Assembly (NCBI GenBank): GCA_965648905.1
Contig: CBFGIT010000015.1
Span: 1 to 64,000, forward strand
Direction of reading: 5' to 3'
DNA from: a candidate division WOR-3 bacterium
GTDB taxonomy: Bacteria; Hydrothermota; Tepidihabitantia; Tepidihabitantales; Tepidihabitantaceae
Length of the DNA stretch: 64,000 nucleotides
Part shown: positions 51,662 to 56,549 of the stretch, one piece after another
How positions within the stretch are numbered: the first letter of the stretch is position 1
Layout: each line of letters opens with the position of its first letter
Made by a program: the position numbers and the translations under genes
Notes under the pieces: generated by a model
Seen by the model: only the letters and a program-made list of their open reading frames with translations
The model's database searches: none
Told to the model about the DNA's origin: nothing

Positions 51662-52030
51662 CTAGAACCTGAACCAACTCTCAGCCAGCCCGCCCAGCAA
51701 AGGCATCTTCCAGTACTTGCCGCTGGCCGACTGTATGATGCCGATTATCGCCATCACAAACGCGAACAGCCATCCCACCGGCCAGATGACGAACCAGCCG
51801 ATGAACGGAATCGCGCCGACGATACTCACCGCGAACCAGAAGATCGTCAGGACAATGCCCTGCTTGACGTGGAACTTGCAGAACGCGTTCTCCTTGTTGG
51901 CGAGCATTGGCACAAGCCAGAGAATACCTAGATACGAGAGCCAAGCCATTGACTTGCCCTTCTCGACATCCTCGGAGCCTCTCTCAGGCGGTGCAGCGGT
52001 CTCGACTATCTTCTTCTCTTCATCAGCCAT
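51662..52030 (-). CDS. DUF4870-like membrane protein
   Basis: AWLSYLGILWLVP..FCKFHVKQG..GKYWKMPLLG. Confidence 0.85.
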   Translation of the reverse strand: MADEEKKIVETAAPPERGSEDVEKGKSMAWLSYLGILWLVPMLANKENAFCKFHVKQGIVLTIFWFAVSIVGAIPFIGWFVIWPVGWLFAFVMAIIGIIQSASGKYWKMPLLGGLAESWFRF

Positions 52031-52062
52031 TTATGACTCCTTTCGGGCAGTTGTTTCATAGA

Positions 52063-52479
52063 CTAGACCATCAGACGTTCTGTGTAGGCGCTCACGACCG
52101 GAATCCTCCAGCGCTGTCCTGACAGACAGTGGGCGATTCCTATTACCGCAATGACGATATAGGCGCCCGTGACCACAAGGCCGAGCGGGTAGTGTATCAT
52201 CCAAGCTACAGCACGGAAGACAAAGCCCAAGATGAGCATGTTACCAAGCACCTTGCCGAGCAGGAAGTCCGAAATCCAGACTCCCAACCAGAACACAAAA
52301 AGAGCGAGCTGCACGACCATGCTCTGCCGGCCGTGGAAGCGTGCGAACTCATCAGTCCGGGCAAAGAAGACCGGTACGAAGAAGAGCACCGGCAGATAGC
52401 CGACCGCAGCTATGACTGTACTCTCGTGCGAGGGCTTCTCTGCGCTGGTGAGCGTCGGGCCATCTTCGTTGCTCAACAA
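52063..52479 (-). CDS. DUF4870-like membrane protein (paralog)
   Basis: AAVGYLPVLFFVP..FARFHGRQS..GQRWRIPVV. Confidence 0.8.
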   Translation of the reverse strand: MLSNEDGPTLTSAEKPSHESTVIAAVGYLPVLFFVPVFFARTDEFARFHGRQSMVVQLALFVFWLGVWISDFLLGKVLGNMLILGFVFRAVAWMIHYPLGLVVTGAYIVIAVIGIAHCLSGQRWRIPVVSAYTERLMV

Positions 52480-52579
52480 GTGAGACTATAGCTTCGAGAT
52501 GGATGATGTCAAGCAGGTTGAGCAGAAGGGCCAACAGCCCGTTACCAGGGTGGCAGGGGTTCGGGTCGTCGGCGGCGTC

Positions 52580-52745
52580 GTGGGGGCACAAGGAGCAGGC
52601 CGGGGCTGGTCGGCACGTGCGCGGCAGCGCCGTACAAGTTGGAATGCGGTCCGCAAGAAGGTGCGGCGGTATGCGGCTGAAGGACCGGCCGGACTGCTTG
52701 ACCGGTCGCGGCGTCCACACCACAGCCCGCGCCGCACGCCGGACA
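52580..52745 (+). pseudogene. IS481-like transposase N-terminal HTH remnant
   Basis: AVRKKVRRYAAEGPAGLLDRSRRPHHSPRRTP motif; no downstream DDE domain. Confidence 0.65.
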
Positions 52746-52880
52746 TTGACAGGACAACAGGGCCGGACCGCAGCAAGACCGTGTACCTGTTCAAGCACGC
52801 TGCGGCCGGCGAGCAATCGACTCTTGAACCCTCGACTTCACGATCTCAGCCTTGAACCTGCGCGTCCGCGGCGCGCGGCG

Positions 52881-53246
52881 CTACTTCACGTTTATCAGCC
52901 CGAAGCGCAGGAACTTCATCACGTCCTCGTCGAGGCCGCGCACCTTCCACTTGGCGATGAGCGCATCGGTCTCGTTCTTCAACACCTTGCCGGTGTAGAT
53001 GTTGGACTTCTTCCACAACTCGCGGCAGTAGTTCAGGTAGCTGACATACAGGGCCGAGGGGATACCTGAGTTGTCGATTGCCTCCTTGGCCTGTAGTTCA
53101 AAGTTCGCCAGCTCGGTCTGACGCGCCTGATGCCGGGCCAGAGCATACTCGCGCACGTCATCGCTGGTCTGCTTTGTCCGCTCCGGCTTGGTCTTGGTTG
53201 CGTACTTGAACTGCCGGTCGATGTTGTCTCTGATTCTTCCGGGCAT
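52881..53246 (-). CDS. 121-aa basic alpha-helical protein, candidate SIRV2-fold (Adnaviria) major-capsid-protein homolog
   Basis: GAAAGGA RBS, own promoter, GC3-rich codons; R-x4-R-x2-K-Y-x2-K, GI-x7-Y-x2-Y and TG-x2-L-x-N-x4-L motifs. The CDS is well supported; the fold assignment is inference. Confidence 0.7.
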   Translation of the reverse strand: MPGRIRDNIDRQFKYATKTKPERTKQTSDDVREYALARHQARQTELANFELQAKEAIDNSGIPSALYVSYLNYCRELWKKSNIYTGKVLKNETDALIAKWKVRGLDEDVMKFLRFGLINVK

Positions 53247-53362
53247 TGTTCTGTCCTTTCTGCTGCCTCTGCGGCCTGGCGGCTGCAGGTCCGGCTGAAC
53301 GCGGACACGCCCGACGTTCGCAGCGCGCGAGCCACGCACGCACAGCCGAAGCAGCCACGAAG

Positions 53363-53391
53363 AGTATAGCTGCGCAAGTCGCCCGGCGCAA
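53363..53391 (-). promoter_or_regulatory. sigma70-type promoter of the capsid-fold gene
   Basis: TTGCGC-N17-TATACT on the minus strand. Confidence 0.6.
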
Positions 53392-53444
53392 GACCAAGCG
53401 TCCCCCTAAGCCACTAATCCTGGACGCGCGGCGCAACTCCTGCG

Positions 53445-53696
53445 GCTTAGCGCTGATATACCACGCGGGCATACGCAGAGTAAACGGGTACTATCACCAG
53501 CGGGGCGTACCAGACATAGACCGATAGGGTATTGCCACGGTAGTAGCCAGGGGGCTAGCCCCGGGCCACGGGGAGGTATACCCCAGGGTATGCCCTGTCG
53601 GCTTACCGGGATTAGAACCTGCAATAAGACCGGCGGTAGACCTCGAGGTAGCATGACCGATAATAGCCGTCCGTCTAATGGTACTAACCTCTCCAG
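53445..53696. repeat. 12-bp-periodic array of about 21 units (TAnTA / TAnRC / GYnTA)
   Basis: 20 of 27 TA dinucleotides fall in two phases 3 bp apart (53457+12n: 12 sites; 53448+12n: 8 sites). Confidence 0.85.
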
Positions 53697-53940
53697 AGGG
53701 CGAACGAACGGGCGGCCGCTGCGCCGAGCAAAGCTGCAACAGCAAGCCGGCCAAGAGGTTAGCCTCATCGGCCCCCGCTTCGGCTGCCTGTCCGGACGGC
53801 GAGTTCCGCGCGGCCTTCAGAGGTGTGACGAATGAGTCAGCCTCTTGCCGGTTTGGGCGCGCGACTGGCTGTTGGCGCACCGGCAGACCCGGCGCGCACT
53901 ACGCGGTGTGCAAACCTGAGCAGCCGGACGACGAAAGGCA

Positions 53941-54129
53941 GTACCCTTGGAGCTCTTGGTGAGCTTGGTGGTTCAATCTCGGACTCGGGGTTGTGCCTGA
54001 GCCCTGGTTCCGACACTGGAGCAACCGCAGAGGCCAACTGTCGAAGTTCGAAGGTCGAAGCTCGAAGTTCGAACGTACCCTTGGAGCTCTTGGTGAACTT
54101 GGTGGTTCAATTTCGGATTCGGAGCTGTG
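53941..54129. repeat. two 55-bp direct repeats with an intervening heptamer run
   Basis: GTACCCTTGGAGCTCTTGGTGARCTTGGTGGTTCAATYTCGGAYTCGG at 53941-53995 and 54075-54129 (5 mismatches); five TCGAA-core heptamers at 54041-54075. Confidence 0.85.
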
Positions 54130-54539
54130 GGCTTGACTGGGCGCAGAGCCGAACTAGACTTGTTCGTCCTCAAAGACCAGGCAAGCCGAAGTGCCCGGCA
54201 AGGAGAAAGCGGCTGACCATGTCCTGCCCGCTGTTTGTCTCTAAGCTCAGCAGGGCGCTCAAGAGAGCCCTGCCATCTGAGCCTGTAACTTCCCGCTCCA
54301 GCCGGGGTCGGGGCGGGCGTACCTCGGCCTTGACCGTTGCACCAGTCTCCGCCGCACAAGCGGTGAGATTCAGGGAGGTGCTGATATGAACACAGCAGGC
54401 CCAACCTTCGCCAATCTCCAACCTCGTCCTTCTGGGTGAGGTGCCAATAATCATGTGCAATGTCCCTGGAACCGCAGAACCGAACCGCGGATTCCTGCCC
54501 GGAGTGCGGCCAGTGCCTCATGTCCGCGGCCGAGCCGCC

Positions 54540-56549
54540 CTATGGACGCCGGACGTTGCCGCTGTCGTTACTCGCGAACGTGTTTGCGGCCTCGAGTGTG
54601 TCCGGGTCTGGATACTCGGTCCCGTCGAGGTATATGCCCCATGCTCTGCTGTCGGAGATGTAGGAGCCGGAAATGTCAGGAACGGCATCGGTAATGACGA
54701 CATTACCCTTGTCGTCACCTCCCCCGTAGGAGATTCGGCAGTTCCTGATTCGGCAAATGGTATCAATCGCCTGCCTCCAGAACGACAGCCCGCGCCAGTC
54801 GCCAGGCTGCGGGTTCTCGGCTGCTGAGGTGAACTCTATCTGCCCGGCCGTGCCGTCCGCAATCAATCCGCCGCTGGCGACTGTGTCGCCGATGATGATG
54901 CCTGTCCCGGACTGGAACTGCAGGGTCGCACCAGGTTCGATCGCGACCACCGGTCCGCTGTCTCCCGAGACCTGCACACTCGCTCGGAAGACATAGGGAA
55001 CCCCAGGGCTGCGCCAGTTGCCGGAGGTCACGACTCTGCCGCCGTCAACCAGCACGATGTCTCCACCCGGGCCGTTGCCGGTCAGATTGTTGCCGGGTCC
55101 GATCCGACTGATACCCTCGGCCGGCAGACGCAACGCCGGGCCGACGCACGTGGTGACGATGTTGTTGCTGAAGTCGTTGAGGTAGCCGCCCACACACACG
55201 ACTCCAGCACCGCCGCTCTGCCGTATCACGCAATTGCTCAGACTCAACCCGATGCTGGCGCTCTCCCGCACCGCAGCGGCGTTACCCGCTCCGGCAAACT
55301 CCACGATGCAGTGGCTTAGCCGAGACCCGGCCAAGGTCCGGCCAAGGAATGCCAACCCTCGCCAGTCGCCGCGCGCCGGGGTCTCGGCATCAGACGTGAA
55401 GGTCACATTCGAATTGGCAGTGCCGACGGCAACGACGCCGCCCGGACCTGCCCGTCCGCATTCAATACCGGCACCGGTTCGAAACCTGATGGTCACGCCC
55501 GGCTCGATGGTCAGCATCGGCACAGCCGAGCCGCCGACCTGGATTGTGGCATCCTCTTCGACGACATAAGGCATGCCAAGGTTGAACCACATGCCGCTGC
55601 CCGCGAGCGCACCGGCGCCGACGAGGATGTAGTCACGGCCATTACCGGCCAAGCGATTTCCGGGCCTGAGAAACCGAACTCCCTCGGGCGGCACTCTGAC
55701 CGGATAGGAGGCGCAGCCGGTCACTGTGTTGGAGTCGAAGTCAACGCAGTGCCCCTGAAACGTGTTGTCAATGCCGGCACCGGCACTTCCCACGATGGTC
55801 GTGTGGTCCATCCTGACAATCGCGCCCATGAACAGGAAGAACGCTGCCCCGCCTGCATCACCGGCGTGCTCTATCCGGCAGTAGCTGAGCACCGAGCTTC
55901 GTCGTGTGCCTTCGTAACAGCGCACGCCATACCAGGACCCGGGACCAGGAGTAGATGAGTTCGACCGAAACAGGATGAGCGAATCAGGCTTCCCGACCGC
56001 GGACAGCTCACCGGCCGAACCCCAGCCGACCGTGAGGCCGGCACCGTCGTCGAACCGGACATCGCAACCGGGCAGGATGGTCAGCTTTGCACCATGGCAG
56101 ACGCTGACGCTGGTCGTAACCACGTGCGGGTTGCCCGAGGGCCACCAGACTTCGTTTGCGGTGATGTCTGTGCCGTGCGTTGTCGGCCCTGAGCCTCCGG
56201 CAATGCTGACAACGCACGTATCCTCGGCCGTATTGCCCCAGCGGTCTTGAACCCGGGCAACGATACGGTGGGTGCTTCCTGGCCTCTCCCCTGTCGCATC
56301 CCAGGTGCAGCGAAACGTATCAGAAGCACTACTCCCGGTGCTGTCGAGCAGCAGCGTATCAGCATAGACCGCGACCCAGCTCAGGTGCTTGTCGTCAGTT
56401 GCGACCACGGTCACTTGTGTTTCGGCAGCGGCGATCACTGCGTTCCGGGCCGGTTCTGTCACTTCCACCAACGGGGCGGTCTTGTCCTTGAAGGCGCAGC
56501 CGATGGTGATCGCCAGCCCGGCCGCAAACAGCATGAAACGTCCTGACAT
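54540..56549 (-). CDS. lipoprotein with Ig-like domain and repeated parallel beta-helix modules
   Basis: Lipobox TIGC; three TI.PG..F..G..G.L.A.G..FTS..P..G.W.G repeats; AGGAGG RBS. Confidence 0.8.
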   Translation of the reverse strand: MSGRFMLFAAGLAITIGCAFKDKTAPLVEVTEPARNAVIAAAETQVTVVATDDKHLSWVAVYADTLLLDSTGSSASDTFRCTWDATGERPGSTHRIVARVQDRWGNTAEDTCVVSIAGGSGPTTHGTDITANEVWWPSGNPHVVTTSVSVCHGAKLTILPGCDVRFDDGAGLTVGWGSAGELSAVGKPDSLILFRSNSSTPGPGSWYGVRCYEGTRRSSVLSYCRIEHAGDAGGAAFFLFMGAIVRMDHTTIVGSAGAGIDNTFQGHCVDFDSNTVTGCASYPVRVPPEGVRFLRPGNRLAGNGRDYILVGAGALAGSGMWFNLGMPYVVEEDATIQVGGSAVPMLTIEPGVTIRFRTGAGIECGRAGPGGVVAVGTANSNVTFTSDAETPARGDWRGLAFLGRTLAGSRLSHCIVEFAGAGNAAAVRESASIGLSLSNCVIRQSGGAGVVCVGGYLNDFSNNIVTTCVGPALRLPAEGISRIGPGNNLTGNGPGGDIVLVDGGRVVTSGNWRSPGVPYVFRASVQVSGDSGPVVAIEPGATLQFQSGTGIIIGDTVASGGLIADGTAGQIEFTSAAENPQPGDWRGLSFWRQAIDTICRIRNCRISYGGGDDKGNVVITDAVPDISGSYISDSRAWGIYLDGTEYPDPDTLEAANTFASNDSGNVRRP

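Follow-up and report, generated by a model that had tools for sequence, protein, structure and literature searches.

We identify, in a candidate division WOR-3 bacterium, a 12-bp-periodic DNA array encoded beside a gene whose 121-aa product is a bacterial homologue of the SIRV2-fold major capsid proteins (MCPs) of Adnaviria, and we consider it probable that the array is a sequence-encoded docking track on which about 21 dimers of this adjacent capsid-like protein would be seated. The array lies in what we call the window, the whole 64,000-nt stretch of contig CBFGIT010000015.1 that was analysed. A preliminary description, made from the letters of this DNA, had read the array as a site for a polymerising dimer, and our analysis supports that reading with evidence that is strong but circumstantial, a candidate dimer protein being encoded next door. 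The features of the locus, in window coordinates, are as follows.

52881..53246, minus strand: open reading frame, stop codon included, of the gene for a 121-aa all-helical protein (MPGRIRDN...LINVK)
53363..53391, minus strand: promoter-like site of the 121-aa gene, with a -35-like TTGCGC (53391-53386), a 17-nt spacer and a -10-like TATACT (53368-53363)
53445-53696: 12-bp-periodic array, 252 nt or 21 twelve-mers
53445..53540: left arm of the lattice, 8 units of 12 bp (units -9 to -2)
53541..53576: conserved GC-rich centre, units -1, 0 and +1 (TAGTAGCCAGGG GGCTAGCCCCGG GCCACGGGGAGG), which shares the 12-bp register
53577..53696: right arm of the lattice, 10 units of 12 bp (units +2 to +11)

The array occupies part of a 1.3-kb gap, bounded on one side by the small minus-strand gene and on the other by the 3' end of a gene for a 678-aa beta-helix protein. 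It starts about 200 nt upstream of the 121-aa gene, just upstream of the promoter-like site, and these three elements (gene, promoter-like region, array) belong to a single module. In 14 of 18 orthologous loci a match to TTGnnn-N16-18-TAnAnT stands at a conserved spacing from the start codon, 89 nt in most loci and 113-116 nt in loci of the window type, and we predict that the site at 53363..53391 acts as a promoter. A consensus promoter scan of the window did not call this minus-strand site, since its -35 agrees at 3 of 6 positions. Apart from the small gene itself, none of the ORFs flanking the 18 loci is conserved, and the neighbours at other loci are chromosomal genes (DnaK/GrpE, GreA, Sua5 and cargo of type IX secretion, T9SS). 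A provirus or mobile element was ruled out, as no viral, integrase, replication or mobility genes were seen in the locus neighbourhoods surveyed. A replication origin was likewise set aside, since the contexts in which the module recurs are unrelated. At 51662-52479 of the window, downstream of the 121-aa gene, lie the genes of two adjacent small DUF4870 membrane proteins, which have no evident link to the module. The long intergenic region that holds the array also holds two 55-nt direct repeats (53941-53995 and 54075-54129; 91% identical and 134 nt apart) that flank a short TCGAAGT tandem run (54041-54076). This part has short matches on other contigs as well as in related genomes and is probably a small dispersed repeat.

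The periodicity of the array is confirmed. When the tract is cut into twelve-mers from 53445, the 21 units of the preliminary description are reproduced, and its coordinates and counts proved exact. The same is true of its count of 20 of the 27 TA steps in two phases: phase 0 takes 12 and phase 3 takes 8, which leaves 7 elsewhere, and TA density reaches 107 per kb in the array versus 22.7 per kb in the window. Against dinucleotide-preserving shuffles the proposed period-12 peak stands out, with a TA-indicator power of 0.954 that none of 2000 shuffles reaches (null mean 0.081, sd 0.079, maximum 0.508). Just 4 of the 2000 match this power at any period from 2 to 30, and none places 20 or more TA steps in two phases. 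TA power at periods 3 and 4 is strong as well (1.33 and 0.77), which a two-phase 12-bp pattern should produce as harmonics. Tandem Repeats Finder calls no repeat inside the array, which bears out the earlier statement that this is not an ordinary tandem duplication. A genome-wide scan, a type of check that the preliminary description had proposed, covers 249,736 windows of 240 nt in the 3.01-Mb assembly. In period-12 TA power the array ranks first with 0.94 and its paralogous copy at G000:C11:22609 second with 0.85; the third-best value is 0.33. The periodicity extends to other dinucleotides, and the window locus ranks first in the genome for period-12 GG (1.39) and AC (0.62) and second for CC (1.18).

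Similar lattices accompany the orthologues of the gene. Ortholog-level matches, defined as 60% identity or more, are listed in 8 of the 66 genomes of the order, and a metagenome scan added 21 loci. A DNA search of 41 related genomes returned only the paralogue in the same genome and a 43-nt match to the centre in one other genome (G010); the lattice is too diverged to be found in this way, so we used protein-anchored loci instead. Lattices were counted at 19 distinct orthologous loci (58-79% protein identity, at least 250 nt of upstream sequence), and the best period-12 TA power is 0.46-1.60 in 16 of them. One of the three loci that have no strong TA signal has its array cut by a contig end (0.32), and the upstream regions of the other two (0.22 and 0.10) are strongly 12-periodic with other motifs. 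At the loci of distant paralogues (n=21), period-12 TA power is at most 0.26. Across the orthologous loci both arms keep one register around the centre, where conservation is highest. The unit of the other genus is TACTAY plus six variable bases. The GC-rich centre reads …TAGCCCCGG GGCTAsCCCCGG GCCAC…. Among 23 loci, the centre motif GG[GC]CTA[GCT]CC stands 230 nt from the start codon in 14, one unit less (218 nt) in one, 305 nt in both copies of this genome and 134-157 nt in one more, and the strict pattern is unmatched in the remaining five.

The units are also dyad-symmetric, in agreement with the repeated symmetric site that had been proposed from the window alone. Position matrices were built from 154 units of the other genus and 36 units of the window's genus, and each correlates with its own reverse complement (r = 0.76 and 0.72, respectively), best at one shift only. 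The dyad axis is position 2, the middle base of TAnTA, and the extended consensus of a unit is G-n-TA-n-TA-n-C with about three free bases.

The copy on contig C11, the sole other one in the genome, duplicates exactly the gene, the promoter-like region and the array, and similarity between the two copies ends at the right edge of the array (53696). The two copies have an identity of 0.93 over the gene, about 0.80 over the leader and 0.70 over the array, which drops to 0.40 directly to the right of the array. The two arrays align over 324 columns with no indel. Taken by phase of the twelve-mer, their identity is 0.86, 0.90, 0.62, 0.86, 0.81, 0.76, 0.67, 0.52, 0.43, 0.48, 0.76 and 0.76, which amounts to 0.76-0.90 at the GG.TA.ACC positions versus 0.43-0.52 in the spacer. 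The C11 gene (G000:C11:23045-23343) has a 67-bp internal deletion that shifts the frame, and its truncated 86-aa product is on record as P0013. The C11 array keeps its lattice despite the frame-shifted gene, which fits binding in trans and fits equally well a lattice that does not need the gene. As a separate matter, the spacers of the window array and of C11:22609-23044 are only 43-52% identical, while of 98 third codon positions in the neighbouring genes just 12 differ. This excess divergence of the spacers might mean either that the genes have been homogenised by gene conversion or that the spacers are unusually fast-evolving.

The 121-aa protein has no family at threshold in Pfam, NCBIfam or PHROGs (the protein was searched as 52884-53249, with one extra residue, T, ahead of the Met), and its kinship emerges from structure and from profiles. 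An AF2 model built on a 13-sequence alignment has a pLDDT of 82 and is all-helical, with a basic N-terminus of low confidence and helices at residues 9-19, 29-61, 65-84, 87-103 and 108-119. This model has the layout of the SIRV2 fold, in which a C-terminal four-helix bundle follows a long N-terminal helical arm. The top six Foldseek matches in the PDB are all Adnaviria MCPs (AFV1 ORF140, SSRV1, SIRV2 and SFV1; E 0.07-0.45, TM about 0.6). In VIA-align, an independent comparison with 48,161 PDB chains, the top six are again all Adnaviria MCPs, at Z 12.9-8.6 versus 7.9 for the best unrelated chain, although for helical bundles such as this one structural scores of a middling kind can come by chance. 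The C-terminus of the SIRV coat protein comes first (Z 12.9, rmsd 1.4 over 76 residues), followed by AFV1 ORF140 (12.2), SSRV1 (12.1), AFV1 ORF132 (11.1), AFV1 (9.8) and SFV1 (8.6). A profile of 24 family members, searched against 177,635 PDB sequences, finds AFV1 ORF140 at E 2.5e-4 and SFV1 VP4 at E 5.6e-4, and more weakly SIRV2 (E 0.34) and SSRV1 (E 0.77). The orthologue-only profile reaches SFV1 VP4 at E 0.062, and the Pfam family SFV1_VP4 stays under its cut-off, with a best E of 0.035 and matches in 5 of 13 members. Given that the fold match is joined by profile matches, we treat the 121-aa protein as a true homologue of the Adnaviria capsid proteins. A two-copy complex prediction for it (alignment A2) scored under the mark, and we draw no conclusion from it.

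In the structural accounts of the virions, the asymmetric unit of AFV1 and SIRV2 is one capsid-protein dimer with 12 bp of A-form DNA (PMC5517147), and SFV1 likewise has 12 bp of A-form DNA per capsid-protein dimer (PMC6105669). The number of dimers per turn differs (14.7 in SIRV2, 9.3 in AFV1 and 17.1 in SFV1) and 12 bp per dimer is constant (PMC5517147, PMC6105669). The period of our array is thus the length of DNA that these accounts assign to each dimer in three solved virions. Besides the fold and the detectable profile similarity to SIRV2, SSRV1, AFV1 ORF140/ORF132 and SFV1 VP4/VP5, the protein shares with the viral MCPs a length of about 120-140 aa and a basic N-terminal part of low model confidence.

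There are also clear differences. In the cited parts of the ICTV profile, the hosts reported for Adnaviria are archaea only and the capsid fold is described as unique to archaeal filamentous viruses (PMC12282232), whereas the host here is a bacterium. The gene, unlike that of a virus-encoded, virion-building protein, sits among chromosomal genes without viral neighbours and belongs to a multi-copy cellular family, which is present in 65 of the 66 genomes of the order with 1-34 matches each. From this chromosomal setting and this distribution, we regard the protein as a capsid-protein homologue and not as a capsid protein. The DNA partner would differ too, being a short, sequence-defined lattice by a promoter-like site rather than a whole genome coated regardless of sequence. 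Among the systems that we compared, the array and its protein would work most like an Adnaviria capsid-DNA filament, yet one that is not a capsid.

The wider family suggests that the association of protein and period is not peculiar to one locus. A search of 1.84 billion cluster representatives, with E up to 1e-3, places 1,346 clusters at 50% identity in the capsid-like family. We compared lag-12 autocorrelation with that at lags divisible by 3 but not by 12, and took the 95% level of a genome null as the threshold. By this measure the region upstream of the gene exceeds the null at 13 of 20 distant-paralogue loci and the downstream region at none of the 20, which leaves 7 loci that have no lattice above the null. 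The motifs differ between paralogues (CnCnnGGGTCGT in 28 units, CCAnTCnGnnnG in 16, and others), and the 28-unit CnCnnGGGTCGT array has stops in all six frames and diverges block-wise between two genomes. That motifs vary while the 12-bp period stays suggests that the protein family dictates the period and each paralogue its own motif. Another member encoded in the window's own genome (C21:28878-29237, HMM E 3e-7) abuts a 12-bp array of its own, 'GGAyTGGTnnnn', which is present in three copies that are 87-90% identical over about 430 nt (G000:C10:541-830, C21:28537-28870 and C12:19357-19650). The C21 copy directly precedes this divergent family gene, and the C10 and C12 copies retain just its first 18-25 codons. 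In addition, a cassette of a capsid-like paralogue, an ECF sigma factor, an HPr-domain protein and a second capsid-like paralogue occurs twice in this genome.

G000:C10:73281-76064 (L060): ECF-sigma/HPr cassette
C52:1-2835 (L061): ECF-sigma/HPr cassette

The cassette adjoins defence-type genes (an SNF2 helicase, an OLD-family ATPase and an Eco57I-type methylase), and a GC-rich 12-periodic stretch lies upstream of its first gene, at C10:76030-76270.

The pairing of gene and lattice could be read differently. Another DNA-binding protein, either nucleoid-associated or a transcription factor, might bind the lattice, with the capsid-like gene merely its regulated target. The array does lie upstream of a promoter-like site, a position used by activators and repressors, and the C11 array is conserved next to a broken gene. 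There is moreover a third kind of 12-bp-periodic array in this genome (…AGCG… / …CGGCTC…), at G000:C18:1177-1460 and C23:20245-20530, one upstream of ptsH-ptsI and one with a ZnuA-like gene on one side and a T9SS cargo gene on the other; we detected no capsid-like gene near either, so 12-bp periodicity is not exclusive to the family. We nonetheless judge this explanation unlikely, as the period equals a 12-bp footprint that, in the structural accounts available to us, is known only for the SIRV2-like capsid fold, as different motifs accompany different paralogues of one family, which points to cognate pairs, and as no other conserved gene travels with the module.

A second alternative, to which we give a little less credence, is that the array acts as RNA, either as a transcribed repeat with UAnUA every 12 nt for a multimeric RNA-binding protein or as a structured ncRNA. 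It would account for a TTGAC box inside the array that is conserved in most orthologues, and for a weak plus-strand promoter-like site that the promoter scan places at 53637-53664. The centre could also form a short GC hairpin, but RNAalifold on 13 loci gives this hairpin 7 pairs with 0 compensatory changes and finds no conserved fold. Rfam, searched over 52000-55500 with E up to 1, has no family match in the array and a lone chance snoRNA-like match outside it. These results speak against a structured ncRNA and leave an unstructured protein-binding RNA as the form that the idea could still take. Against either form, a dyad-symmetric motif that occurs in both orientations fits duplex DNA better than a single strand, and no conserved gene or terminator follows the array.

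Arrays of short, regular sites bound by cooperative dimers are the hallmark of centromere and operator systems such as ParR/parC, TubR/tubC and the heptads of the omega protein, and TubR/tubC uses 12-bp repeats. Our array shares with them its many short sites, their partial freedom of orientation and the adjoining gene of the presumed binder. By analogy with these systems, autoregulation would be a likely by-product of an array that lies beside the gene of its binder. If the array served a mobile or replicating element as a centromere-like site or as iterons (ParR/parC, TubR/tubC or Rep-iteron type), this would also suit a module that is patchy, with ortholog-level matches in few genomes of the order, that occurs in varied contexts and that is duplicated in this genome. 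However, Pfam scans of the neighbours at the window locus and at three other loci found no ParA, ParM, TubZ, Rep, integrase or transposase, so that the partner NTPase of such systems is absent at all four. The neighbours are housekeeping and secreted-protein genes, and the fold of the protein is neither ribbon-helix-helix (RHH) nor winged helix-turn-helix, which together make this explanation very unlikely. The array differs from iterons in that about 8-9 of the 12 bp in a unit are constrained, a pattern that looks like DNA-shape positioning (TA steps flanked by G/C) and not like a full base-specific iteron.

It is scarcely credible, finally, that the tract encodes a tetrapeptide-repeat protein, an outcome that the preliminary description had named beforehand as counting against its reading, or that it is a functionless minisatellite. 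Frames +1 and -0 are open across the tract in the window, which is a by-product of the TA steps all sharing one phase modulo 3. A conserved open frame was sought in 13 related arrays, and the six frames are free of stops at 0, 2, 2, 4, 0 and 1 loci, so no frame is open in more than 4 of the 13. The minus frame that is open in the window is interrupted by stops in the C11 copy, and substitutions between the two copies fall in blocks of the twelve-mer and not at every third base. Coding is thereby excluded. A neutral minisatellite would not keep register and motif across genera while its spacers are nearly randomised, nor does Tandem Repeats Finder report a repeat, and both forms of this explanation are already largely refuted.

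We therefore return to the docking track as the preferred reading and consider how it might work. The lattice would consist of about 21 pseudo-palindromic 12-bp sites, each with its dyad on the central base, and would position a filament of homodimers of the adjacent 121-aa protein. As their viral relatives do, these dimers would polymerise along double-stranded DNA, each taking up 12 bp and holding it as A-form DNA. All dimers of a helical filament like this would meet identical DNA geometry, so that features easing the deformation should recur at the repeat of the protein (12 bp) and not at the twist of the DNA (10.5 bp). Deformable TA steps with flanking G/C, which recur every 12 bp in the array, would be features of this kind, and TA and GG/CC steps may favour the A-form. 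Nucleosome-positioning sequences, such as those of the Widom 601 type, offer a parallel: they carry periodic flexible TA steps at the helical repeat of about 10 bp. Both cases have such steps in GC-rich DNA, and in both the steps would phase a protein-DNA wrap, rotationally or translationally, with no base-specific operator. They differ in that our array has the 12-bp period of a protein repeat, comes from a bacterium and is paired with a protein unrelated to histones.

The position of the lattice, which starts just upstream of the gene's own promoter-like site, suggests the simplest roles that the filament might have: a nucleation or feedback site that senses and limits how much of the protein there is, or a fixed landmark on the chromosome. 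To our knowledge, viral capsid proteins of the SIRV2 fold do not read sequence, and a sequence-specific lattice thus exceeds what the fold is known for.

It is possible, though on balance we doubt it, that the system at this locus is one instance of something broader. WOR-3 bacteria may carry a whole family of cellular relatives of the Adnaviria capsid proteins, each paralogue paired with its own 12-bp-phased lattice. The resulting sequence-addressed A-form DNA filaments would be a previously unknown bacterial chromatin switch, and some of them may control the ECF-sigma/HPr cassettes. The same family could be the cellular stock from which the capsid of archaeal filamentous viruses arose, or could reflect capture in the reverse direction. 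At the level of abstracts, the literature yielded no published account of bacterial homologues of Adnaviria capsid proteins or of 12-bp lattices.

If the docking-track reading is true, a bacterial chromosomal family with the Adnaviria fold would provide a concrete handle on the origin of that fold, and the period of its DNA partner, 12 bp, would equal the length of DNA that the viral dimer covers in solved structures. The array would then be the first example from nature of a sequence that positions a filament of protein and A-form DNA. One 121-aa protein and one 252-bp DNA would make a compact system in which to study a protein-driven B-to-A transition in cells, and the differing motifs of the paralogues' arrays suggest that its specificity may be programmable.
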